A stretch of 64,000 nt of DNA from Rickettsiales bacterium. GTDB lineage: Bacteria > Pseudomonadota > Alphaproteobacteria > Rickettsiales > SXRF01. Positions within the stretch are counted from its first letter, which is position 1. Every line of letters begins with the position of its first letter. Where the stretch lies: assembly GCA_005792635.1 (NCBI GenBank), contig SXRF01000068.1, positions 180 to 64,179 of the forward strand. Reading direction: 5' to 3'. Position numbers and translations under genes: made by a program. The notes under the pieces are model-generated. The model was not told the DNA's origin, did not search any database, and worked only from the letters and a program-made list of their open reading frames with translations. This document shows, one piece after another, positions 3,238 to 64,000 of this stretch.

Positions 3238-3618
3238 ATGAGTAAGAAATCAGCAGAACGGGCATTAGCCCCAACGGAAGCAAAGGCGGTTATCAAGCGT
3301 TTGCGCGTTAGTCCGCAAAAACTTAATTTGGTGGCGGGTTTAATTCGCGGCATGTCTGTTGGCGCGGCACTAAATCAGCTTTCATTTTCCAGCAAGCGCA
3401 TTGCAGTTGATGTTAAAAAAGCGTTGCAATCAGCGGTTGCTAATGCTGAAAACAACCATAACCTGAATGTAGATTCTCTTTATGTTAAAGAGGCTTTTGT
3501 TGGTAAGAATTTAGTTATGAAACGCATGCATACCCGTGGTCGTGGTAAGTCGGCTCGTGTATTTAGACCATTCGCAAATTTGACGCTGATTGTGCGTGAG
3601 AAAGAGGAGAAAGCATAA
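3238..3618 (+). CDS. rplV: 50S ribosomal protein L22
   Basis: 126-aa ORF with [16 protein letters not shown], in the expected operon order. Confidence 0.95.
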
Positions 3619-4326: not shown

Positions 4327-4746
4327 ATGATGAGTCCTAAGAAAACTAAATATCGTAAAGCTCATAAGGGGCGCATTAAAGGCGCGTCTAAAGGTGGTTT
4401 TACTCTTAACTTCGGTGAGTATGGTCTGAAAGCTATGCAGCCAGAGCGTATTACAGCGCGTCAGATTGAAGCGGCTCGCCGTGCCATCTCTCGTCATGTA
4501 AAGCGCGTTGGTCGTATGTGGATTCGTATTTTTCCAGATCTTCCTGTAACTCGCAAACCAGCGGAAGTTCGCATGGGTAGCGGTAAAGGTTCTGTAGAAT
4601 TCTGGGCTGCTCGCGTTGCACCGGGGCGCATTCTTTTTGAAGTAGATGGTGTTCCAGAAGCTGTTGCACGGCAGGCTTTTGACATGGCTTCAGCGAAGTT
4701 GCCAATTAAAACCAAATTTGTTGCTCGTGTGAATGAAGGGGAATAA
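4327..4746 (+). CDS. rplP: 50S ribosomal protein L16
   Basis: 139-aa ORF with [14 protein letters not shown]...GKGSVEFW. Confidence 0.96.
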
Positions 4747-5009: not shown

Positions 5010-5243
5010 ATGCCAAGGCGCGTACTACAAGGAACAGTCGTTAGCGACGCAAACGAAAAAACCGTAACTGTACGGGTTGATCGTAAAGTTGCGCATCCTA
5101 TTTATAAAAAAACCATTCGTCGTTCTAAAAAATATGCGGCGCATGATGAAAAAAACCAGTTTAAGGTTGGCGATAAGGTGCAAATCATTGAATCTGCTCC
5201 GATTTCCAAGACCAAGCGCTGGCAAGTTGTTTACCAAGGATAG
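5010..5243 (+). CDS. rpsQ: 30S ribosomal protein S17
   Basis: 77-aa ORF with [20 protein letters not shown]...KKYAAHDE. Confidence 0.95.
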
Positions 5244-6590: not shown

Positions 6591-6896
6591 ATGGCTAAAC
6601 TAAGTTCAATAAATAAAAATAACACCCGCGCTAAACTAGCAAAGCAAGCTGCCCCTAAACGCGCAGCACTTAAAGCTATCATCATGAACCGCGAGCTTCC
6701 GTTTGAAGAACGCTTGCAGGCGCAGATTAAGCTATCGGAAATGCCGCGCAATGGAGCGCAGATTCGTGTGCGGAATCGCTGCGAACTTACTGGTCGTACC
6801 CGCGGTGTGTATCGTAAATTCAAATTATCGCGTATTAAACTGCGCGAGCTTGGTTCGTTCGGGAAAATTCCGGGTCTTACCAAAGCTAGCTGGTAG
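6591..6896 (+). CDS. rpsN: 30S ribosomal protein S14 (long, zinc-free type)
   Basis: 101-aa ORF with [26 protein letters not shown] and no CxxC pairs. Confidence 0.95.
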
Positions 6897-6907
6897 AGGA
6901 AAAAATT

Positions 6908-7303
6908 ATGTCAATGAATTATCGTCTTGCTGATATGTTATCGCTTATTCGCAATGGTCAGGCGGCTCGTCTTGCTACTGTTCGTTGCCAAGCGACCAAC
7001 TTGCTTGGTAATGTTTTGGAAGTTTTGAAAGAAGAAGGCTTTATTGAGGACTATAAAAAAGTCGTTGATGGTAGCCGTGCTGATTTTGAAATCACGCTGA
7101 AATATCATGAAGGTGAACGGGTTATCAAGGAAATCAACTGCATTTCTAAACCTGGTCGCCGTGTTTATGCGCAGATTTCTAATTTGCCAAAATTTTTCAA
7201 TGGGCTTGGCATTGCAATTCTTTCAACATCTCGTGGCGTTATGTCTGATTTCAAGGCGCGTCAGGTTGGTGTTGGTGGCGAAGTTCTTTGTTCAGTATTC
7301 TAG
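6908..7303 (+). CDS. rpsH: 30S ribosomal protein S8
   Basis: 131-aa ORF with DMLSLIRNGQAA...GGEVLCSVF. Confidence 0.96.
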   Translation: MSMNYRLADMLSLIRNGQAARLATVRCQATNLLGNVLEVLKEEGFIEDYKKVVDGSRADFEITLKYHEGERVIKEINCISKPGRRVYAQISNLPKFFNGLGIAILSTSRGVMSDFKARQVGVGGEVLCSVF

Positions 7304-7334
7304 TTTTTAGTATTTGTTCTTAAGGAAAAATAAA

Positions 7335-7871
7335 ATGTCTCGTGTAGGTAAAAAGCCAGTTGCAATACCATCAGGCGTTACTGTTTCAGTAAAGTCCGGT
7401 GAAATTGCTGTAAAAGGTGGCAAGGGTGAGCTGAAGGCTAAACTAGCACCAGAAGTTACGGTTGCAGTTGAGGGTAGCAATGTTATTGTGCTTCCTATTA
7501 ACAAGGAAGATGCTCGCTCGCGTGCAATGTGGGGAACGACTCGCAACCAAGTGAACAATATGGTTGAAGGTGTGTCAAAGGGCTTTACTGTTCGTCTTGA
7601 AATTCAAGGCGTTGGTTTCCGTGCCGCTGCTGATAAGCAATATTTGACATTGGCTCTTGGGTTTAGCCATGAAATTAAATTTGCTATTCCAGAAGGAATC
7701 AGTATTGTCTGTGAAAAGCCAACCTCTGTTGCGATTTCTGGCTTTGATAAAAAATTGGTTGGTCAAGTTGCCGCTGAAATTCGCGGACTGCGTAAGCCTG
7801 AACCTTATAAAGGTAAGGGGGTTCGCTATGAAGGCGAATTTGTTCGCAAAAAAGAAGGGAAGAAAAAATAA
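7335..7871 (+). CDS. rplF: 50S ribosomal protein L6
   Basis: The canonical start MSRVGKKPV is the ATG at 7335, preceded by AAGGA. The ORF-track start at 7314 is an upstream extension. Confidence 0.95.
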   Translation: MSRVGKKPVAIPSGVTVSVKSGEIAVKGGKGELKAKLAPEVTVAVEGSNVIVLPINKEDARSRAMWGTTRNQVNNMVEGVSKGFTVRLEIQGVGFRAAADKQYLTLALGFSHEIKFAIPEGISIVCEKPTSVAISGFDKKLVGQVAAEIRGLRKPEPYKGKGVRYEGEFVRKKEGKKK

Positions 7872-7876
7872 GGGTA

Positions 7877-7935
7877 AATCTTAGCAGCTTTGCTGCTTAG
7901 ATTCCCCTTGTCCCGCACTTGTTGCGGGAACTGGA
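7877..7935 (+). repeat. Intergenic repeat, copy 1 (weak hairpin, then CCCGCA-loop-TGCGGG hairpin, then CTGG)
   Basis: TTAGCAGCTTTGCTGCTTAGATTCCCCTTGTCCCGCACTTGTTGCGGGAACTGG. By hand alignment it differs from the copy at 12356-12412 at roughly 7 positions. Confidence 0.85.
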
Positions 7936-7967
7936 TAAATTGATGGATTGAATGTAAGGAAGAAACT

Positions 7968-8339
7968 ATGAGTCAGGCCGTAAAATCTAAAGCGTTGTTT
8001 GAACGCCGTAAGGAGAGAGTTCGTTTTGCGCTTCGCAAGCAAACTAATAACCGTGTGCGCCTTAGCGTGTTTCGCTCTGGGAAACATATCTATGCACAAT
8101 TGATTGATGACACCAAAGGGGAAACTCTTGCTGCTGCTTCTACTCTTGATGCGGAAGTAAAAGGCAAGGTTAAATCTTCGGCGAGCATAGAGGCAGCAAA
8201 AGCTATTGGTGCGCTAATTGCTACTCGTGCTAGCAAAGTTAATGTAAAAGAAGTAGTGTTTGATCGCGGTGGATATTTGTTCCATGGTCGTGTAAAAGCA
8301 CTTGCTGATGCTGCTCGTGCTGCTGGTCTAGCGTTCTAA
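7968..8339 (+). CDS. rplR: 50S ribosomal protein L18
   Basis: 123-aa ORF with [18 protein letters not shown]...[21 protein letters not shown]. Confidence 0.96.
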
Positions 8340-8390
8340 TAGTGTAGCATTTTAGCAATAAATAACAAAAATTAGTTGAGGAATAAAAAG

Positions 8391-8957
8391 ATGGCTCGTC
8401 CAGAACGCAATGAAAAGAAAACCACTCAAGAAGGCAGCGATTTGATTGACAAGTTGGTGTCCATTAACCGTGTTGCCAAAGTGGTAAAGGGTGGTCGCCG
8501 TTTTGGTTTTGCTGCACTGGTTGTGGTGGGCGATGGCAAAGGTCGTGTTGGTTATGGTGCTGGTAAAGCGAAAGAGGTTTCTGACGCAATGCGTAAGGCT
8601 CTAGATTCGGCAAAAAAATCAATGATTCGCTTCCCGCTTCGTGAAGGTCGGACTGTGCATCATGATTTATATGGTCACTTTGGCGCGGGTAAAGTTATCA
8701 TCCGCACTGCGCCTGTTGGTACTGGTATCATCGCTGGTGGGCCGATGCGTGCAGTATTTGAAGCTCTTGGTGTGCAAGATGTGGTGGCTAAATCGGTTGG
8801 GACTTCTAACCCACACAACATGCTTAAAGCAACTTTTGATGCACTTGAAGGCATGAAATCTCCACGAGCTATTGCTGCGAAACGCGGTAAAGTTGTTGGT
8901 GAGATTGTGGATCGTCGTGAGGGAAAAACTTCATCAGCAAAAACTGCTGAAGCTTAA
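8391..8957 (+). CDS. rpsE: 30S ribosomal protein S5
   Basis: ATG at 8391 after GAGGAATAAAAAG. Contains [16 protein letters not shown]. The ORF-track start at 8376 is a TTG extension. Confidence 0.94.
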
Positions 8958-11212: not shown

Positions 11213-11871
11213 AACTAATCCTACTAGGGCCTCCGGGGGCAGGGAAGGGTACGCAGGCGGATTATTTGCGCTCTTCGCTTGGAATTGCAAAATTATCTAC
11301 GGGGGACATGCTGCGGGCAGCGGTTGCTTCTGGCAGTGAGCTTGGCAAAAAAGCTAAAGATATTATGGCAAGTGGCGGGCTAGTTCCTGATGATTTAGTT
11401 ATTAGCCTGATTCATGATCGCACAGCGCAGGATGATTGCAAAAATGGCTTCATTCTTGATGGCTTTCCGCGTACGGTTGGACAGGCGGAGGCGTTGGACA
11501 AAATGCTTGCGGCGGAGAACAAAAAATTAGATTTTGTAATTGAGCTTCAGGTTGATGATAAGTTACTCACCGAGCGCATTGCTGGTCGTTTTTCCTGTGC
11601 AAAATGTGGTGCTGGCTATCATGACAGCTTTAAGCCAACTAAAGTTTCTGGAGCTTGCGACGAGTGCGGTGCGACTGAATTTTCTCGCCGTGCAGATGAT
11701 AAAGCGGAAACAGTGGCGGCTAGGCTTGAAGCCTATCATAAGCAAACCGCTCCGCTATTGCCATATTATTCAGCCAAAGGCATTTTAACCCCTGTTGACG
11801 GAATGGCGGAAATTGCTGATGTAACTAAACAAATTGATAAAATTGTAAAACAGAAAGAAAAAATTGCATAA
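11209..11871 (+). CDS. adk: Adenylate kinase (zinc-lid type)
   Basis: 220-aa ORF with P-loop [10 protein letters not shown] and lid cysteines CAKCG...CDECG. Its start overlaps the secY stop. Confidence 0.96.
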
Positions 11872-11876
11872 AACTG

Positions 11877-11904
11877 TTGACGGGGCGGATAAACTTACTA
11901 TTAT
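11877..11904 (+). promoter_or_regulatory. Candidate sigma-70 promoter for rpsM-rpsK-rpoA-rplQ
   Basis: TTGACG (11877-11882), a 16-nt spacer, then TATTAT (11899-11904). It lies about 70 nt upstream of the rpsM GTG and is followed by a tandem AACCGTATTTTT x2. Confidence 0.4.
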
Positions 11905-11971
11905 CCATCCTCCTCTTAACCGTATTTTTTAACCGTATTTTTAGTAACTTATTCATTTTTAGGGGTTTTTT

Positions 11972-12349
11972 GTGGCTCGTATTGCTGGTGTAAATATTCC
12001 TTCTGCTAAGCGTCTTGATATTTCGCTTACTTATATTCATGGTATTGGTCGCGTGAAGGCGACGGAAATCTGCGAAAAAGCAGGTTTGCCGCCTGAAAAG
12101 CGTGTTCATCAACTGGCGGAGTCGGAAGTGATTCGCGTTCGTGAGATTATTGACCGTGATTATACGGTGGAAGGTGATTTGCGCCGTGAAGTTTCCATGA
12201 ATATCAAGCGTTTGGTTGATTTGGGTTGCTATCGCGGTCTTCGTCATCGTAAGAAATTGCCTACTCGTGGGCAGCGTACGCATACCAATGCGCGTACTCG
12301 CAAGGGTAAGGCTAAGCCAATCGCTGGTAAGAAAATTGCAACTAAGTAA
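11972..12349 (+). CDS. rpsM: 30S ribosomal protein S13
   Basis: 125-aa ORF with a GTG start after AGGGG. Reads [10 protein letters not shown]...[24 protein letters not shown]. Confidence 0.96.
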
Positions 12350-12355
12350 GGGGAA

Positions 12356-12412
12356 AACTTGGCAGTTTTGCTGCTTGGATTCCCCTTATCCCGCATTTGA
12401 TGCGGGATCTGG
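12356..12412 (+). repeat. Intergenic repeat, copy 2 (same family as 7877-7935)
   Basis: TTGGCAGTTTTGCTGCTTGGATTCCCCTTATCCCGCATTTGATGCGGGATCTGG. It lies immediately downstream of the rpsM stop. Confidence 0.85.
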
Positions 12413-12443
12413 TAAATAGAAATGATAAAAGGATAACAAAACA

Positions 12444-12842
12444 ATGGCTGCTAAAGAAGCTGGTGCCGCAAGGCTTAAGAAACGCGAACGCAAAAACATC
12501 ACCACTGGTGTTGCGCATGTGAACGCGTCGTTCAACAACACCATCATCACTATCACTGACACCCAAGGGAACACTGTGTCTTGGTCGTCGGCTGGTCATC
12601 ATGGCTTTAAGGGGTCGCGTAAATCTACACCTTATGCGGCGCAGGTTACTGCTGAAGATGCTGGTCGTAAGGCGATGGAGCATGGTATGAAGACTGTTGC
12701 TGTTGTGGTGAAGGGGCCTGGTTCTGGTCGTGAATCGGCACTTCGGGCATTGCAAACTGTTGGTTTTACCGTTACTTCGATTAAAGATATTACGCCAGTT
12801 CCGCATAACGGTTGCCGTCCGCCAAAGCGTCGTCGTGTATAA
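12444..12842 (+). CDS. rpsK: 30S ribosomal protein S11
   Basis: 132-aa ORF with [18 protein letters not shown]...[14 protein letters not shown]. Confidence 0.97.
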
Positions 12843-12891
12843 AATATTTACCGCTTAATCGCTGGTTACTCATCTATTGGGAGAGAAAAAA

Positions 12892-13905
12892 ATGTTAGCA
12901 AAAAATTGGCAAGACTTAATTAAACCTGTAAAGCTCGATGTGTCTCAATCTAAGGGCAATCCAAACCAAGCAACGATTGTTGCTGAGCCGCTTGAGCGTG
13001 GCTTTGGGCATACTCTTGGTGTTGCTTTGCGCCGCATACTGCTTTCGTCTTTGCAGGGGGCTGCGGTGACCACTCTTAAAATTGAGGGTGTGTTGCATGA
13101 ATTCTCCTCAATCCCTGGTGTGCGTGAGGATGTGACCGATGTTATTCTGAACATCAAAGAATTGCGTATTAAGGCTGGTAGTTCAGAAAAAAAACGGGTT
13201 ACGCTTAATGCTGTTGGTCCTTGTGAAGTAAAGGCTGGTGCGATTGAGGTTTCTGGCGATGTTGAAATTATCAATAAAGAACATGTCATTTGCACTTTGG
13301 ACAAAGGTTCAAAGCTTAATATGGAAATGACTGTGGAAACTGGTAAGGGCTATGTGCGTGCTGCTCGTGCGGCTGATGCGCCTATTGGTCTTATTCCTGT
13401 TGATGCTTTGTTTAGCCCGATTGTTAAAGTTTCATACAAAGTTGAAAATGCTCGTGTTGGTCAGATAACTGACTATGACAAGCTTTCTATGACTATAGAA
13501 ACTGATGGCTCTATCACTGCGGAAGATGCGATTGCTCTTGCTGCTCGCATTTTGCAGGATCAGTTGCAATTATTTATCAATTTCGAAGAGTCTAAAGTTG
13601 AGCGCAAAGAAGATGCAAAACCAGAGCTTCCGTTTAGCCCGTATTTGCTCAAAAAGGTTTATGATTTGGATGAGCTTTCGGTTCGTGCGACAAATTGCCT
13701 GAAAAACGACAATATTATTTATGTTGGTGATTTGGTTCAGAAAACCGAAGGTGAGATGCTTAAAACCCCGAACTTTGGGCGTAAATCACTTAATGAAATC
13801 AAAGAAAAACTGGCAAAAATTGGTTTGCGCTTCGGTATGGAAATACCAAGCTGGCCACCAGAAAATATTGAAGAACTCGCTCGTAAATACGAGGATCCAT
13901 ACTAG
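12892..13905 (+). CDS. rpoA: DNA-directed RNA polymerase subunit alpha
   Basis: ATG at 12892 after GGGAGAG. Contains [23 protein letters not shown] and the C-terminal-domain sequence [20 protein letters not shown]. Confidence 0.96.
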
Positions 13906-29307: not shown

Positions 29308-29382
29308 GCCGCTTTAGCTCAGGGGTAGAGCAACCGCCTTGTAAGCGGTAGGTCGTCAGTTCGAATCCGACAAGCGGCACCA
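29308..29382 (+). tRNA. tRNA-Thr (anticodon UGU)
   Basis: Hand-folded cloverleaf: acceptor GCCGCTT/AAGCGGC, D arm GCTC-AGGGGTA-GAGC, anticodon arm ACCGC-CTTGTAA-GCGGT, variable loop AGGTC, T arm GTCAG-TTCGAAT-CCGAC (one A-C mismatch), and an encoded CCA. Confidence 0.9.
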
Positions 29383-49575: not shown

Positions 49576-50334
49576 CTAGCTTCTTTTAATAGGTTCAATC
49601 TGTTTTTGTATGTTTTTTATGTATTCATCAATTTTAAACTCCATTTTTGTACACATTTTTATCAATTCCTGCATTTTTAGGTCAATATAACTACCTTCAT
49701 ACTGTTCTGGGAGGAGATAGTCATTAACTTTATCTACGCTATAGGTAGGCAACAATTTATTAAACTCTTGTTCATATTCTTCAAAAGAAAAAGATTTATT
49801 GTTTTGTACCCACTCATTCATATCGTTGAATATGTTTATATTAGCATTTTCAGCGTATTCTTCATATTTATTATCCAATCCTTGTTCTATTAATCTATTT
49901 TTTTCATCTCTTATAACATTCCAATTTTTCTGTATACCATCAGATAATTTTTGAAAACCGTCTTTAAATTGAGCGATACCTGATATTATTCCATTACGCA
50001 AATCAGACAAATTTTCACCAGTAACTCTATCTGTATAAAGGTAAGAACTTAAAAGATTTCTGAGCCCTGACAGCATATTTATGTAAAAACTCTCATCTGA
50101 AGATGTATTACTATTATCCTTTAATCCTTTGATTATATAACCATACTCACCAACAGAACAGTATAAAGGCGAGTTTTGTAATGAAGGATTTTTAGTTCCG
50201 ATCTTGTGATACAAAATATCGTTTATTATTCCCTTTTTATCTTCCGTAGCTATTGAAAGAATAATAGCATCTATGTCTTTACATATGCTGTCAGGAGTGA
50301 TTTCTGCTTGTGACTTCTGTGCGGCGGTATTCAT
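49576..50334 (-). CDS. Hypothetical protein, strongly AT-rich orphan directly upstream of purL
   Basis: 252-aa ORF, Asn/Ile/Lys/Glu-rich. Sampled 60-nt lines give about 32-37% G+C, against about 53% for a purL line. No family recognised. Confidence 0.6.
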
Positions 50335-57900: not shown

Positions 57901-59208
57901 ATGACAGAAATAATAGATAAAAAAGCAATTTTGCCGACGGATGCTGCTGCTCCGCTGGTGAAGAAGATATTCGCTACCAAGGAGGAGTTGCTGGAGGCTT
58001 TGGGGAGTGGAGATTTTTATCTCGAGCTGATGATGGTTGCTCTTGCCATTGTGTTGGCTGGGCTTGCTGCTTATGTTATTCGCCGTCGCACCAGAATATA
58101 TTTTGACGCTCACCCACCAAAAAAGATTGATATTGAATTTATTATTAAGCCGCTTGCGCTTCTATCGTCTTTACTGTCTTTATTGTTCCTGAGCATAGCA
58201 AAGCCATTTGCCGAGGAATATAGCCATAGTAGCGCATTGACCGATGCTGCGATTCAACTTTGCTTGTCATATACGGCGGCGAAATCAGTCTTGCTGATTG
58301 TGCGCTCGCGCCTTGTTGCGTGGTTTATCGCTCTGGTTATCATGGTGGTGGCGGTGCTTAATGTTACTGGTTTTATGAAAACCACGACCGCCTATCTTGA
58401 TGCGATGTCGTTTGAGGTTGGTAAATTCAAAATTTCTATGCTTGGTCTTACCAATGGTTTGGTAATTTTGGTGGTGGTTTTTTGGGGGGCTGGGTTGCTT
58501 TCTCGTACACTGGAAAGCTATCTGCGCCGTACATCGGCTCTCAGCTATAATGCTCGCGAGCTTACGGTAAAATTCTTCAAAATATTCATCTATTTTGTAG
58601 CAATTCTTATTACTCTTTCCGCTGTTGGCGTGGATCTCACCGCTTTTGCTGTATTCAGCGGTGCGCTCGGTGTTGGTATCGGTCTTGGTTTGCAAAAAAT
58701 TACTGCCAATTTCGTTAGCGGTATCACTCTGCTTCTTGAAAAATCTATAAAACTTGGTGATTTAATTGAGGTGGCGGGAACAACTGGTTGGGTGCGTGCG
58801 CTCAATATTCGTTACGCGCTGATGGAAACTTCTGATGGGCGAGAGTTGCTAATTCCCAATGAAGAACTTACTTCCACACGGGTGACCAATTGGTCGCACA
58901 GCAACGACAAGGCGCGGATTGAGATTAAAGTAACGCTGGATTATGAGACTGACGCGAAGAAAGTTATAGAGCTAATGCTGGAATGCGCTAGATTGCATCC
59001 GCGTTGTTTGCGTAAGCCAAAGCCGATTTGTTGGCTGCGCGAATTCACTGATACTGGCTTGGTGTTTGTCCTCGCCTTCTGGATTCCTGATGTGCACGAA
59101 GGGCGCAATACGCCGCAAAGCGAGGTTATGCTTTCTATATTGGAGGTTTTCCGCAAAGAGGGAATTGTGTTTGCGCAAAGTGCGAACGCTGTGCGGAAAA
59201 GTGTTTAA
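57901..59208 (+). CDS. MscS-family mechanosensitive channel
   Basis: 435 aa with multiple N-terminal TM helices and the MscS core GVGIGLGLQKITANFVSGITLLLEKSIKLGDLIEV. Confidence 0.88.
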   Translation: MTEIIDKKAILPTDAAAPLVKKIFATKEELLEALGSGDFYLELMMVALAIVLAGLAAYVIRRRTRIYFDAHPPKKIDIEFIIKPLALLSSLLSLLFLSIAKPFAEEYSHSSALTDAAIQLCLSYTAAKSVLLIVRSRLVAWFIALVIMVVAVLNVTGFMKTTTAYLDAMSFEVGKFKISMLGLTNGLVILVVVFWGAGLLSRTLESYLRRTSALSYNARELTVKFFKIFIYFVAILITLSAVGVDLTAFAVFSGALGVGIGLGLQKITANFVSGITLLLEKSIKLGDLIEVAGTTGWVRALNIRYALMETSDGRELLIPNEELTSTRVTNWSHSNDKARIEIKVTLDYETDAKKVIELMLECARLHPRCLRKPKPICWLREFTDTGLVFVLAFWIPDVHEGRNTPQSEVMLSILEVFRKEGIVFAQSANAVRKSV

Positions 59209-60758
59209 TGACAAAGGCAATATATATTTCAGTCGCTGCAATGCTTGCGTTTGTCTTGTTGCGTGAGGTTTGGTTTTTTCCTTCGCCTGAGCTTATTCCT
59301 AATCCTGATAATGCTTGGTTGCTCTATGCGGCTGGGCGTTTGGCGGCTGGGCAGAAACTATATATTGATATATTGGAAACCAACCCGCCGCTGATTGTTT
59401 GGCTTAATTTGCTGCCCTTATACCTTGGGCGGTTGCTTTCCGTAAATCCATTGATTATGCTGCCGATTTTGGTGTCTGCCCTCGCTTTGTATAGCTTGTT
59501 TTTATGTTCTCGGATTTTGCGGGATTATAAGTTTCAAAGTGAATTTATTATTTATATCGCCTTTGGTTTTTTTATCCTCTCCACCATGATTTATGGGCAG
59601 CGCGAGCATATCTTTATAATTTTAGCACTGCCATATTTATTGACTTCCTTGTCAAAAAATAGCCGCTACTCACTCGCTATAATAATGATGGCGGCGATTG
59701 CTTTTGCTATTAAACCATTTTTTATGTTGTTGTGGGGAATAAACGAATTGGCGCGGGCAGTGGAAAACCGCAAAATATCAACGATCTTTGCATGGCATAA
59801 TTGGTTTATTGGTTTGTTTCAACTAGCATATTTCGCAGCGATTTACTTTATTACGCCTGAATATTTCTCGGTTATTATTCCAGCTCTATTCACCACATAT
59901 TTTGCTTATGAAACGCCGCTACTTAATATATTGAAAATAATTGGATATATAACAGCTCCTGTTTTTTTATTGTTATTACTATCGAAACTGCGCGACTGCA
60001 AAAATGGTGCAAATAAACTAATTCCAAGAGCGGTTTTGTGGATGTTTGCTTGCGCGATGTTTATGGTTTTGCAACAAAAAATCTGGATAAACCATCAATA
60101 TCCATTGTTGTTTATGGCGGGGCTGGTTTTGCTGTTGCTGCTTACTCACCTTATTGAGCAGTGGAAAATATTGCGACTGGAAATCGGACGCCCAAAATTT
60201 GCGGCACTCGCTGCTATAATCTCAATATTTATTGGTGCATTATTTGTTGATGTAAAAACCAGTTATCTGATGGTCAGTAAGCCGTCAAAAATTAGTGAAC
60301 AGCTTATTGAAGCCATAAATACAAACGCGGACGGAAAATATATTTACCCGCTGGTGTATAATATGCAGCCAAGTTTTCCCGCGATTAACCTATCTAAAGG
60401 CGTGTTTCTAGGCGGATTTCATCAGCTATGGGCTATGGCGGGCTTGATTATTCGTGATAACGATAGCTTTCCTGCGATAGATAAAACGAGAAAATGGTTT
60501 TATGATACGCTGGTTGATGATTTCAGCAAATTTCCACCACAACTAGTATGGGTGGATGAAAATATCAATTTGGAGAAAGTAAATATTTATGATATTAGCC
60601 CTGCTGATAGGGATATAATAGCCGTTTTGTCGCGCGATGTCCGCTTTGCCAAAATTTGGCAGAATTATAAAAAAATTGGTGAAATAATCGGCGAGCAAGA
60701 TAAAAAAAACAATGATAAAAAACCAGAGAAATACTCTCTGTATATTCGGAAAAATTAG
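59208..60758 (+). CDS. Polytopic membrane protein, GT-C (ArnT/PMT-like) glycosyltransferase family candidate
   Basis: 516 aa with at least 10 hydrophobic helices. The N-terminal loop PDNAWLLYAAGRLAAGQKLYIDILETNPPL resembles the DE..Y...G...kPPL signature of GT39/GT83 enzymes. Its start overlaps the mscS stop. Confidence 0.55.
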   Translation: MTKAIYISVAAMLAFVLLREVWFFPSPELIPNPDNAWLLYAAGRLAAGQKLYIDILETNPPLIVWLNLLPLYLGRLLSVNPLIMLPILVSALALYSLFLCSRILRDYKFQSEFIIYIAFGFFILSTMIYGQREHIFIILALPYLLTSLSKNSRYSLAIIMMAAIAFAIKPFFMLLWGINELARAVENRKISTIFAWHNWFIGLFQLAYFAAIYFITPEYFSVIIPALFTTYFAYETPLLNILKIIGYITAPVFLLLLLSKLRDCKNGANKLIPRAVLWMFACAMFMVLQQKIWINHQYPLLFMAGLVLLLLLTHLIEQWKILRLEIGRPKFAALAAIISIFIGALFVDVKTSYLMVSKPSKISEQLIEAINTNADGKYIYPLVYNMQPSFPAINLSKGVFLGGFHQLWAMAGLIIRDNDSFPAIDKTRKWFYDTLVDDFSKFPPQLVWVDENINLEKVNIYDISPADRDIIAVLSRDVRFAKIWQNYKKIGEIIGEQDKKNNDKKPEKYSLYIRKN

Positions 60759-61806: not shown

Positions 61807-63108
61807 ATGAGTAATAAATTACAGCCTGTGCGCGGAACGCATGATATTTTACCTGATGAATTTGAAAAATTCAGTGCGGTGACGGGTGCGGCGCGTGAGC
61901 TGGCGACTTTGCATGGTTTCCGCGAGATGGCAACGCCTATTTTTGAGATGACCGAGGTTTTCTCGCGCTCTATGGGCGAGACTTCTGATGTGGTTTCCAA
62001 GGAGATGTTTTCCTTTGAAACGCGCGGCGGCGAGAGCGTGTGTTTGCGTCCAGAATTCACGGCGGGAACGGCGCGGGCGTTTATCTCAAACGGAATGCAG
62101 CAGAATTTGCCGCTGAAACTATTTTCCACTGGCGCAGTGTTTCGCTATGAACGCCCACAAAAGGGCAGGCAACGCCAATTTCACCAAGTGAATTTTGAGT
62201 GGCTGGGCGATGCTGGTTGGCAGGCGGACGCCGAGATTATTTTACTGGCTGGGCATTTGCTGTCTATGCTTTCCGAGGAAAAATTCACACTTCATATCAA
62301 CACCCTTGGCGATACGGATAGCCGCGAAAAATATCGGGCTGCTTTGGTCGCTTACCTAACTCCACTAGCCGATAAATTATCCGATGACAGCAAGCGTCGG
62401 CTTGCTCAAAATCCTTTGCGGATATTGGATACGAAAGACGCTGGCGACCGCGAATTGCTAAAAAATGCGCCAATCATGACCGATTATTTGAGCGAGGCGG
62501 CAAAGGCTAGATTTGCTAGTATTTGCACAGTTTTGCAAGCCGAGGAAAAAACTCTGTTCCAGCAAATAAAGATTGACCCTGCGCTGGTGCGCGGGCTGGA
62601 TTATTATACTGACACGGTGTTTGAATTTGTGGCAAATTCTGGCGAGCTAGGAGCGCAGAATACTGTGCTGGCGGGCGGGCGATATGATGGGCTGATCGAG
62701 CAAATGGGCGGCAAAGCAACGCCAGCCATTGGTTTTGCTGCTGGCGTGGAGCGATTGTCAATGCTGATTCCCGATGATGTGGAAGCCGAAAAATCCGAAA
62801 AAGTTATCGTGCTGCCTTTTGAAGAAATTGCACCCAGCGAAGTTTTTTCCATTGCCAGCTTGCTGCGCTTCGGGCTGTATAATATTTTTCCTGATTTGAG
62901 CCTAGAAATTTACTGGGAAGGAAAACTTTCCAAACGCCTTGAAAAAGCTGTGAAAAACGGCGCAACCCACGCGGTTATCCTCTCGCCCGAGGAAATGAAA
63001 AACGAAGTTTGCATAGTAAAAAATCTGAACACGCGAACCGAACAAAAAATCCCGCTGGAAGATTTTGAGGATGACGCAAAGTTGGAAGTGATTTTTGGGA
63101 TAGAATAG
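61807..63108 (+). CDS. hisS: Histidine--tRNA ligase
   Basis: 433 aa with LQPVRGTHDILPDE, FRYERPQKGRQRQFHQ and GGGRYDGL. Confidence 0.96.
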   Translation: MSNKLQPVRGTHDILPDEFEKFSAVTGAARELATLHGFREMATPIFEMTEVFSRSMGETSDVVSKEMFSFETRGGESVCLRPEFTAGTARAFISNGMQQNLPLKLFSTGAVFRYERPQKGRQRQFHQVNFEWLGDAGWQADAEIILLAGHLLSMLSEEKFTLHINTLGDTDSREKYRAALVAYLTPLADKLSDDSKRRLAQNPLRILDTKDAGDRELLKNAPIMTDYLSEAAKARFASICTVLQAEEKTLFQQIKIDPALVRGLDYYTDTVFEFVANSGELGAQNTVLAGGRYDGLIEQMGGKATPAIGFAAGVERLSMLIPDDVEAEKSEKVIVLPFEEIAPSEVFSIASLLRFGLYNIFPDLSLEIYWEGKLSKRLEKAVKNGATHAVILSPEEMKNEVCIVKNLNTRTEQKIPLEDFEDDAKLEVIFGIE

Positions 63109-63139
63109 AAGCACCAACCACTCCCTCCAACTTTGAGGG

Positions 63140-63157
63140 CTGAACATATATGTTCAG
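63140..63157. repeat. Perfect 18-bp palindrome downstream of hisS
   Basis: CTGAACATATATGTTCAG, flanked by imperfectly complementary C-rich and G-rich arms (63113-63176). It is a possible terminator or island junction. Confidence 0.8.
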
Positions 63158-63419
63158 GGTTGAGGTGGGAGGTGTCATGAAACTAAAATTAAAACTTGAT
63201 TATAATACTTAATTATGCTTGATATTTAGATGGCGTGGACACGCTCTTGAATTTTAAGTGCCATCGATGGCAGAAGAATATGGAGGTCAATATGTAGAAT
63301 TTTATGCAAACTACACCGCAAAAGCCGTGTGGTTTTTTTTGTGCAAATTTTTTGTCAGGTGCTGAGTTCGCAGAGACAAATGGAACTTTTAAAAACAAAA
63401 AACATAAGGATTTTTTTAT

Positions 63420-64000
63420 ATGACTAATACAGAAATAACTAGGATTATTCTAAAAACAGATTATTCTCGTCGCTTTCCAGACCCACTTAATAAATTGGAA
63501 ACATCTAATTTACAAATGGAGCATCACATATTGCTTGTTAAAGCGATAGATTTGCCAAAAGAAATATCTCGAAAACCAAACCCTAGAGAGCAGAATATAG
63601 ACAAAAGGGTGTATAAAAAAATACAAGAATCTCTTGCTAACCCCAATGATGCCAAGTTTCATTTAAGAAACAAAGGCATTACTATGTTCGCTCAAAAAGT
63701 AGAAATAAGCGATGATAAAAAGAATGTAACAGTTTTTATTGGAGCAAAGGATGGAATCGCAGATGGTGGGCATACTTATGAAATAATAATCGATGCTCAA
63801 GAAAGGCAAGAATGTCCAGATAATCAATATGTTAAAATTGAAATAATTACAGGTATTCCAGAAGACGATAAAGTAGAAATTGTTGGAGGGCTGAATACTT
63901 GTGTTCAAGTTCAGGCTATTAGCCTAGCAAATCTTGATAGTAAGTTTGATTGGGTTAAAGGCGAAATAAAGGATATGCCATATTCAGACAAAATCGCCTA
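63420..64000 (+). CDS. AT-rich ORF running off the window end; N-terminal ParB/DndB/AIPR-like motifs (partial)
   Basis: Hand translation from the ATG at 63420 is open to the window end (193 codons): MTNTEITRIILKTDY...SRKPNPREQNIDKRVYKKIQESL...FHLRNKGITMFA...GAKDGIADGGHTYEII.... It is absent from the ORF track because no stop falls within the window. The functional guess rests on the NPR and DGxH motifs only. Confidence 0.5.
   Translation, partial: MTNTEITRIILKTDYSRRFPDPLNKLETSNLQMEHHILLVKAIDLPKEISRKPNPREQNIDKRVYKKIQESLANPNDAKFHLRNKGITMFAQKVEISDDKKNVTVFIGAKDGIADGGHTYEIIIDAQERQECPDNQYVKIEIITGIPEDDKVEIVGGLNTCVQVQAISLANLDSKFDWVKGEIKDMPYSDKIA

Follow-up and report, generated by a model that had tools for sequence, protein, structure and literature searches.

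A solitary AIPR-family gene with a putative leader RNA lies in a 1.7-kb AT-rich insertion between hisS and prfA of a Rickettsiales bacterium

The 64,000-nucleotide (nt) stretch of contig SXRF01000068.1 analysed here (Rickettsiales bacterium, assembly GCA_005792635.1; hereafter the window) ends in AT-rich DNA that begins just downstream of hisS, the gene for histidyl-tRNA synthetase. This DNA is a horizontally acquired cassette of ~1.7 kb, placed within the hisS-prfA-prmC-DUF4167 block and carrying one conserved gene, a member of the AIPR family. We are highly confident that the insertion is of a single AIPR gene, and we regard as the probable overall explanation a single-gene AIPR cassette equipped with a structured leader, for which defensive and regulatory roles are proposed below.

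The AT-rich DNA between hisS and prfA

The hisS gene (61807-63108, plus strand; 433 amino acids; Pfam tRNA-synt_His, E 9.6e-45) is the last core gene before the insertion. The G+C content falls from 0.43-0.52 over hisS to 0.32-0.34 past position 63200, and an open reading frame (ORF) that starts at 63420 runs off the end of the window. These features, the hisS stop at 63108 and a perfect 18-base-pair (bp) palindrome at 63140-63157 had been recorded in an initial annotation of the sequence, and all of them lie where it placed them. An exact-protein look-up with HisS returned four public contigs, the longest of which (L001; ENA ERZ27257032, 68.8 kb) shows 0 mismatches to the window over all 12,194 overlapping nt and adds 4.4 kb past the window end; a window position equals the L001 position plus 51806. 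Four further assemblies concur with L001 wherever they cover the same stretch. Past hisS, L001 contains a 402-codon AIPR ORF, a 41-codon ORF, a G+C-rich hairpin with a T-run, and then prfA (encoding release factor RF-1), prmC, a DUF4167 gene and a carbohydrate kinase gene, these last four at native G+C (0.47-0.55 for prfA). The low-G+C patch (0.29-0.35) is confined to L001 ~11370-12960 and ends ~810 nt beyond the window. The AIPR gene itself has a G+C content of 32.3%, and of 22% at third codon positions (GC3), in a contig that averages 46% (z = -4.3 against windows of equal length).

The arrangement of this block was compared with that in 80 genomes collected through HisS (41-71% identity), in each of which hisS, prfA, prmC and the DUF4167 gene were mapped by tblastn. 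The best relative is 71% identical in HisS, and the close ones are all uncultured Alphaproteobacteria, several of them labelled Rickettsiales. In 17 of the 19 closest relatives (L005-L017, L020-L023, L081) hisS abuts prfA across a gap of 9-90 bp, compared with 1722 bp here; the other two (L018, L019) had no prfA within the fetched flank. The order prfA-prmC-DUF4167 found after the cassette is the order that follows hisS directly in relatives without the insert, and an AIPR gene occupies the hisS-prfA locus in none of the 80 relatives. The AT-rich DNA is of foreign origin by its composition, by the break in synteny and by the distance of the best homologue of its protein (60% identity). By comparison with the 20-nt hisS-prfA spacers of L005-L007 (TAG-AAGAAAGTATAAAAGAAA-ATG), the foreign DNA would extend from ~63112 to ~64813 (L001 ~13007), and alignment to the spacers of these distant relatives suggests these two positions as the cassette junctions. 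The window thus holds 889 nt of the insertion (63112-64000, plus strand).

The initial annotation had interpreted the change in composition as the edge of a genomic or defence island whose body lay beyond the window. Its call of foreign DNA is upheld by composition and synteny; the large island is not, because the 1.7 kb seen in L001 contain a single conserved gene and are flanked on either side by core genes, and the comparison of hisS flanks among relatives likewise reveals a one-gene insertion. Downstream lies conserved core genome (prfA-prmC-DUF4167), which speaks against an island, while the protein belongs to AIPR and not to a housekeeping family. An island would be expected to combine several accessory or defence genes, commonly with an integrase and with a tRNA or repeats as its boundary; no such combination was found at this locus. 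In the flanks examined (10 kb upstream, 3.5 kb downstream) no restriction-modification (RM), dnd, integrase or tRNA neighbours were detected, the sole tRNA of the window lies at 29308, far from the cassette, and the genes called on L001 include none with a recombinase domain. Unless L001 is chimeric, the edge of a multi-gene island, to which the abrupt drop in G+C and a defence-family gene at the window end had pointed, is therefore hardly credible once core genes at native G+C, in the order of the insert-free relatives, are seen to follow.

In L001, only ~20 nt separate the start of prfA from the strong terminator-like hairpin with its T-run (L001 12973-13027; window 64779-64833). A promoter of its own would not fit there, and if the hairpin is an efficient terminator, prfA must be expressed by transcription that reads through it from hisS or the cassette. 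A cassette inside essential operons thus raises questions about how it moves and how the essential genes downstream are expressed.

In several Rhodospirillales loci (L024, L028, L032 and others; ~7244-8545) a gene of ~1.3 kb also stands between hisS and prfA. This gene is hemA (glutamyl-tRNA reductase), and the gene order there is hisS-hemA-prfA-prmC. Since hemA is a housekeeping gene, the Rhodospirillales arrangement is ordinary synteny, and the idea that the hisS-prfA junction is a general insertion hot spot was rejected.

The AIPR protein and its subfamily

The cassette gene is a stand-alone AIPR gene on the plus strand, defined by its ORF, by Pfam, by the L001 extension and by its homologues; codons 1-193 of 402 lie in the window (63420-64000), and the gene continues to 64628. 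The full 402-residue protein matches Pfam AIPR (PF10592) with E 3.7e-22 and 79.8 bits (cut-off 25), residues 53-357 aligning with profile positions 3-297 of 308, and the fragment within the window matches with E 8.6e-19. The same profile is matched by all 48 aligned homologues. The AIPR resemblance proposed in the initial annotation is thereby confirmed, and the motifs quoted in that annotation, KPNPREQN (residues 52-59), FHLRNKGITMFA (80-91) and DGIADGGHTY (111-120), are present in the protein.

The domain layout consists of an N-domain with invariant NPR, FHLxNKG and DGxHT motifs, followed by a helical C-domain. Across the 48 sequences 65 positions are invariant, and the window ORF retains all 65; among them are R17, P20-D21-P22, N54-P55-R56, F80-H81-L82-x-N84-K85-G86, D115-G116-x-H118-T119-Y120, G157-L158-N159-T160, R205, K233, D258, D264, R329 and K380. 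The motif D115-G116-G/A-H118-T119 contains no arginine of the GxxRxxA/DGQHR/DGQQR type in any of the 48. We presume its DGxH to be the equivalent of DGQQR/DGQHR.

Structures were modelled with AlphaFold for the full length of the nearest homologue, which shares 62% identity with the window protein (predicted local distance difference test, pLDDT, 91.5) and, for the N-domain, from the window's own 193 residues (pLDDT 86.9). Among the predicted viral structures of BFVD, a phage "AIPR protein" ranked first (E 3.6e-10); next, at probability 0.87-1.0, came entries for GmrSD-N/DUF262, "DNA-sulfur modification-associated" (DndB-like), Spo0J/ParB-like nuclease and ParB/Sulfiredoxin proteins. The fold search of the PDB with the full-length model gave nothing significant (E 1.3), and a sequence-profile search of the PDB found nothing. 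Comparative genomics has assigned a ParB-superfamily nuclease domain with links to RM to AbiU1/AIPR/COG1479 proteins (Makarova et al.; PMC3632139, PMC3506569), and has placed the N-domain of DndB in the same family and an N-terminal HEPN toxin domain on AIPR proteins (PMC3632139, PMC3506569). The ParB/DndB likeness that had been noticed in the sequence is therefore borne out at the level of predicted fold and family. Searched down to E 10, the Pfam profiles DndB (PF14072, the DGQHR domain), ParBc and DUF262 found no match in any of the 48 members. We conclude that the protein is a member of AIPR, belonging to neither DndB nor AbiU, with a ParB-like predicted fold.

The 52 residues that precede the AIPR domain are modelled as beta strands, and HEPN families gave no match even at E 10; the HEPN RNase module of AbiU1-type AIPRs is lacking in this protein. 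It resembles the AIPR family (PF10592; AbiU1/AIPR/COG1479) in its end-to-end profile match, its ParB-superfamily core (PMC3632139) and the occurrence of some homologues in defence, toxin-antitoxin or RM islets. It differs from that family in its length of ~400 residues without the N-terminal HEPN attributed to AIPR (PMC3506569), in being usually solitary instead of part of an RM operon, and in its conserved RNA leader. With lactococcal AbiU (PDLC02357), an experimentally defined abortive-infection member, it shares the central ParB-like segment, whereas nothing in it corresponds to the first 250 residues of AbiU. Its predicted likeness to DUF262/GmrSD-N proteins (BrxU, SspE type) and DndB comes from BFVD matches at probability 0.96-1.0, some of them over more than 400 columns. 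Against this likeness stand the lack of any match to the Pfam profiles and of any significant one to solved structures, the threonine in place of the motif arginine, and the absence here of a DUF1524/HNH nuclease domain and of dnd, ssp or BREX neighbours.

The homologues are ~395-415 residues long, the best of them 60% identical to the window protein, and their named sources include Omnitrophota, Nitrospiraceae, Thermodesulfovibrionales and an anammox bacterium. An exhaustive profile search yielded 478 clusters (at 50% identity) at E <= 1e-30 and 1490 at E <= 1e-3, nearly all of 380-430 residues. A phage origin of the cassette was considered and rejected: only seven distant relatives (24-34% identity) lie on viral contigs, none of them with the leader. 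The homology search did not return the exact 402-residue protein, despite gene calls for it on several contigs in the collection searched. A close partial relative (P0076; 234 residues, 83% identity) lies on a 1-kb contig, and one homologue (P0011) is labelled as coming from a Hodarchaeota archaeon, for which a binning artefact is possible.

Taken by itself, the gene is one more member of AIPR and the supposed island an ordinary single-gene islet. The departures from the known picture are the HEPN-less solo architecture as a large clade and the conserved leader that travels with it. A large, scattered clade of ~400-residue AIPR proteins without HEPN, which is thought to be the killing module, implies that the ParB-like core or the uncharacterised C-domain must be the effector, and the AIPR mechanism becomes directly testable with one small gene.

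The leader RNA

Comparison of the 260 nt upstream of the gene revealed an order of elements that is common to most loci. A sigma-70-like promoter is followed by hairpin H1 (variable 4-6-bp stem, loop UGGACU), hairpin H2 (variable stem, loop GGAU/GGAC), a ribosome-binding site that is often a full complement of the 16S rRNA tail (GAAGGAGGUGAU), and a start codon. In the short leader, found in distant homologues (37-45% identity), this start codon is that of the AIPR gene. In the long leader of the closer group it opens a mini-ORF, after which come an intrinsic terminator, a further H2-like hairpin (H2'), a third hairpin with GGA (H3), another ribosome-binding site and finally the AIPR start.

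Five helices of the long leader were evaluated in 42 sequences aligned with MAFFT. Their cells are paired in 88.9% of cases, compared with 41-49% in the control with slid partners; 21 of 24 pairs show compensatory double changes, the covariation score is 0.389 (versus 0.08-0.14), and these values were reached in 0 of 500 shuffles. When the H1-H2 modules of long and short leaders were taken together (63 sequences), 91.6% of cells were paired versus 34-44%, 10 of 10 pairs covaried and the score was 0.557. Of these 63 leaders, 61 have GGA in the H1 loop and 51 have GGAU or GGAC as the H2 loop; the ribosome-binding site reads GGAGG.

A covariance model of the two hairpins and the ribosome-binding site (R1) matches the coding strand immediately before the AIPR gene at almost every locus, among them L085, L152, L156, L164, L148 and L098, which were not used in training. 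Over 0.95 Mb of control sequence (the window and the 80 hisS loci), only the window's own copy scored below E 0.2. Weaker second matches of R1 fall on the H2'-H3 module, which indicates that the long leader is a tandem duplication. The motif was not found in the viral relatives. Rfam 15 gave no match at E <= 1 in L001 11200-13100, the leaders of 12 other loci likewise matched no Rfam family, and a literature search for AIPR with "RNA motif" found nothing. As judged from sequence comparison, the leader is conserved across phyla, apparently undescribed, and travels with the gene. Type III toxin-antitoxin repeats were considered as an explanation of the leader and rejected, as the only repeat is one of 13 nt (2.1 copies, AT-rich, score 40) and the leader modules form a diverged duplication, not an array.

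The window's own copy lies on the plus strand, spans 63223-63419 (~190 nt) and is partly degenerate. The promoter-like site upstream of it (63177-63206; ATGAAA, 18 nt, TATAAT, with the -10 box at 63201-63206) agrees with the consensus at 10 of 12 positions, a consensus match only, and homologous cassettes have TTGACA-17-TATAAT-like boxes at the equivalent position. The R1 match (63223-63296) scores 28.8 bits with E 4e-5 for a sequence that was in the training alignment. H1 (63232-63245; GGCG-UGGACA-CGCU) has GGA in its loop, and all five of its pairs covary across the alignment. H2 (63259-63272; UGCCAU-CG-AUGGCA) has lost the usual GGAU/GGAC loop and is the sole AUCGAU among the 63. The strong ribosome-binding site GGAGG (63282-63286) precedes a start-stop mini-ORF (63292-63297), composed of ATG (63292-63294) and TAG (63295-63297). 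The intrinsic terminator (63310-63341; ACUACAC...GUGUGGU and U8) begins 11-12 nt past the mini-ORF stop and is supported by a terminator scan, by folding and by covariation, with 96% of cells of this helix (helix 3) paired and 5 of 6 pairs covarying across the family. The alignment also places a second, degenerate module at 63356-63410, with H2' at 63356-63376 (GGA lost), a weak GGA hairpin at 63378-63389 and the second ribosome-binding site AAGGA at 63406-63410, ahead of the AIPR ATG at 63420. The low score fits a copy drifting in a new, AT-richer host, and the degeneration of the leader means that the regulation proposed below may not operate in this host.

A mini-ORF is present in 41 of the 42 long leaders; it has 1-14 codons in 40 of them and 27 in the disrupted L119 copy, with no conservation of the encoded peptide. 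In 40 of the 41, the stop codon ends at a point that ranges from 20 nt inside the terminator's 5' arm to 16 nt before it, a distance that lies within the reach of a terminating ribosome as defined by ribosome footprints. The leader in this respect resembles leader-peptide attenuators of the trp and pyrBI type, in which a ribosome at the end of a short ORF overlaps the 5' arm of the terminator, and differs from them in that no alternative antiterminator helix was identified here. Because the mini-ORF peptide is unconserved and can be a bare start-stop, no sensing of amino acids or tRNA is implied.

The second parallel is with the leaders controlled by CsrA/RsmA (glgC, hag, iraD and ColE7 cel), which likewise present GGA in the loops of short hairpins and have a site over the ribosome-binding site (PMC7652899). 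In iraD, CsrA acts through a short upstream ORF (PMC5574718), a precedent for coupling to a mini-ORF, and in ColE7 cel it represses a suicide gene on a mobile element (PMC2896534). The differences from these systems are that the mini-ORF is coupled to an intrinsic terminator, that the module is duplicated in tandem, that the leader moves with its gene between phyla, and that the family loops are UGGACU and GGAU/GGAC and not ANGGAN. The likeness is one of sequence and predicted structure.

These observations can be assembled into a working model. The protein would be a self-contained and potentially toxic abortive-infection or defence effector that acts through its ParB-like nucleotide-binding or nuclease centre (NPR, DGxHT) or through its C-domain. 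A factor that binds GGA loops, either CsrA/Rsm-like or AIPR itself, would block the ribosome-binding sites of the mini-ORF and of the main ORF. With the mini-ORF untranslated the terminator would form, and with the mini-ORF translated a ribosome at its stop would cover the 5' arm of the terminator, so that transcription would read through. The leader would in this way hold the gene tightly repressed by two successive controls. The balance of the evidence leans towards the leader being a genuine cis-regulatory RNA that works roughly in this manner. The case that the gene acts in phage defence is evenly poised, and a CsrA-like identity of the leader binder is doubtful. If confirmed, the leader would be a compact, possibly phylum-portable way to silence a potentially toxic defence gene.

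Several observations weigh against this combined account. The placement of the junctions relies on 20-nt spacers of relatives with only 68-71% HisS identity. The PADLOC AbiU model (PDLC02357) matches weakly and in part (E 2.7e-4, 18.2 bits; residues 60-171 to positions 254-356, 103 of 537 positions), and NCBIfam and PHROGs searches with the protein gave no family. Threonine (DGGHT) replaces the canonical arginine of the ParB/DndB motif (DGQHR, GERRxR), and solved structures provide no significant match, the best sensible one being the ParB-like PadC (6ryk; probability 0.38, E 0.13, target-normalised TM-score 0.40). With regard to the leader, the helices were drawn by eye from the same sequences, which flatters the slid-partner control, and the compensatory changes are the stronger evidence. 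The H2 loop of the family is a GGAU tetraloop and not the ANGGAN hexaloop preferred by CsrA/RsmE, and Alphaproteobacteria are mostly not known to carry CsrA. In the window copy the GGA loops of H2 and H2' are lost, GGA being retained only at H1 and the ribosome-binding site, and its score is the lowest among the long leaders (28.8 bits).

The strongest competitor, which we consider less likely than not, is that the leader is not the target of a host GGA-binding protein. AIPR itself may bind it, for autoregulation or as a functional RNA partner, or it may serve ribosomes and mRNA stability only, through 5' hairpin protection and standby sites. ParB-fold proteins are known as binders of DNA or nucleotides, which argues against binding of the leader RNA by AIPR. 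In favour of this alternative, leader and gene travel together across phyla that need not share a regulator, H1 lies at the 5' end of the predicted transcript, and the H2 tetraloop is not the hexaloop that CsrA prefers (PMC7652899). Against it, CsrA/Rsm targets are typified by just such a combination of invariant GGA in the loops of short, variable stems and a further site over the ribosome-binding site (PMC7652899). A bolder extension strikes us as unlikely, namely that the leader is a new class of RNA integral to a solo ParB-like effector, either as a dual lock or as an AIPR-bound RNA, in an autonomous mobile defence or addiction module of 1.4-1.7 kb that inserts into core operons (hisS-prfA, 23S-5S). 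The dual lock, which shares this low likelihood jointly with the AIPR-bound form, would combine control of translation with ribosome-dependent antitermination and would sense the translation state of the host or a GGA-binding factor during infection.

Mobility, borders and functional alternatives

In all-versus-all blastn comparisons, cassettes that are ~77-84% identical in DNA sit in unrelated flanks. Their homology begins sharply ~175-190 nt before the ATG, at H1 (sometimes at -225 to -370), and stops within ~90 nt of the stop codon; such sharp limits in unrelated flanks indicate that the mobile unit consists of leader and gene. Genomic settings were inspected for seven homologues on long contigs, and metagenomes supplied another 80 loci. 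Four of the seven stand alone among housekeeping or metabolic genes: one between motB and a pilin-like gene, one ahead of dnaX-ybaB-recR, one amid molybdoenzyme genes, and one following pheA beside a RES-domain gene. Another of the seven lies near an MNT/HEPN pair. No conserved neighbour gene emerged from the inspected loci. In one locus (L119, 1-3485) the AIPR cassette lies within an rRNA operon, between the 3' end of the 23S rRNA gene (1-354) and the 5S rRNA gene (3368-3485). The ORF of this copy is split into pieces of 199 and 188 residues and is probably a pseudogene.

Flanking repeats accompany some cassettes. Within 15 kb, L088 has three copies of a 65-nt element that contains an internal hairpin (GGGGGAAACCCTTTAAAAAGGGTTCTCCCCC; 5207-5224, 6603-6667, 8324-8388), and two of the copies, inverted and 92% complementary, flank the AIPR cassette. 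In L100, direct repeats of ~100 nt in total (2631-2710 and 4336-4417; 85-94% identical, spacing 1705 nt) flank the cassette and resemble an att-like or repeat-mediated insertion. The L103 cassette has a 42-nt inverted repeat at its flanks. The bracketing repeats differ from cassette to cassette.

A cassette that is mainly selfish, addictive or mobile, killing cells that lose it or spreading by repeat-mediated recombination, with the border hairpins as the remnant of its mover, instead of a defence gene retained because it benefits the host, would account for several of these observations. Leader and gene form one unit with sharp edges in unrelated intergenic sites (23S-5S in L119, upstream of dnaX, after motB), flanking repeats are frequent (L088, L100, L103, and 15 of 18 bases here, as described below), and tight repression suits a toxic product. 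On the other side, no linked recombinase or transposase and no conserved antitoxin partner was found, the flanking repeats vary by genome and in L088 at least belong to the host's own repeat family, and the disrupted L119 copy shows that loss is tolerated. We judge this explanation unlikely as the main one, and selfishness and defence can coexist.

The perfect 18-bp (9+9) palindrome of the window, CTGAACATATATGTTCAG (63140-63157), lies 31 bases past the hisS stop. It is unique in the window even when three mismatches are allowed, with 0.01 occurrences expected by chance. As the initial annotation had described, it is embedded in a C-rich/G-rich imperfect inverted repeat (63113-63175), a compound structure of a small hairpin (CCCTCC...GAGGG) and the palindrome at the left border of the insert. 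As RNA this repeat folds with -28 kcal/mol (z = -2.66 against dinucleotide shuffles). Neither strand has a T-run (the sequence after the stem is GTCATGAAAC), so the repeat is not a canonical intrinsic terminator, and it was not called by the terminator scan. Its G-rich arm AGGGTTGAGGTGGGAGGT (63156-63173), unique in the window, has an inverted partner at the right border (64764-64781) that matches at 15 of 18 bases in a local alignment, and hairpins of the CCCTCC...GGAGGG type are present at both borders. The palindrome precedes the promoter-like site and is not within the stretch that cassettes share, and the relatives have no hairpin between hisS and prfA. We infer that the palindrome and its C-rich/G-rich arms form a structure at the edge of the insert that arrived with the insertion or arose from it, either an insulator or a scar, and that they do not belong to the conserved core.

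The rival possibility that the palindrome is an operator for a dimeric DNA-binding protein or the hisS terminator appears quite unlikely. Its rarity by chance and its stable structure are in keeping with such a role, and its GAAC-N6-GTTC loosely resembles the SOS box GAAC-N4-GTTC, with a different spacing. The missing T-run, the position upstream of the promoter-like site and of the conserved region that starts at ~-180 to -225, the lack of a similar palindrome upstream in the other loci inspected and the hairpin-free hisS-prfA gap of the relatives all argue against it. Two further identities were tried for the border elements. A genome-wide repeat was rejected for the palindrome and for the G-rich arm, each of which occurs once in the 64-kb window. 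Ends of the integron attC or IS200/IS605 type, looked for by eye, were also set aside and left as speculation: the R''/R'-like boxes CTCCAAC...GTTGAGG are imperfect, there is no matching 3' site, and no integrase or TnpA is present in 68 kb.

It is improbable that the protein, instead of being an autonomous effector, is a DndB- or ParB-like DNA-binding regulator or accessory of a modification or restriction system encoded elsewhere. AIPR genes are described as common in RM operons (PMC2292703, PMC3506569), the predicted fold is like those of DndB and DUF262, and one of the seven homologues shares an islet with PIN, ParE and HicAB genes and a DpnII RM system. The islet, from a Nitrospiraceae genome (L090, 4399-11133), contains Gp49/HTH, ParE-like and PIN genes, the DpnII endonuclease with an N6/N4 methylase and a controller, and HicAB, and is flanked by serA-hisS and ribH-nusB. 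RM adjacency is nevertheless limited to this one of the seven contexts and is missing here, where the neighbours are hisS and prfA; dnd genes were found in none of the inspected loci. The failure of the Pfam DndB, ParBc and DUF262 profiles in all 48 members and the movement of the gene as a solo cassette with its own regulation point in the same direction.

Three other ORFs of the contig deserve mention. The 41-codon ORF that follows the AIPR gene (L001 12834-12959; window 64640-64765) has a hydrophobic core (MEKFAPILEQYGISGIILLLAVYMLWKGEIYFKYPRCKKKK) and a GGAG 8 nt upstream. It belongs to no protein family and has no counterpart downstream of the AIPR gene in 64 other loci, for which reasons it was rejected as a partner protein; it may be spurious or lineage-specific. 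A second low-G+C ORF (49576-50334, minus strand; 251 residues, G+C 0.30, GC3 0.26, in a contig otherwise at 46%) matches no Pfam family and may be another small foreign insertion. Upstream of hisS, at 59208-60758, lies a 516-residue multi-pass membrane ORF with no recorded Pfam match and a G+C content of 0.385, below that of its neighbours; it is native, because it is kept at 49-51% identity in the three closest relatives (L005-L007).

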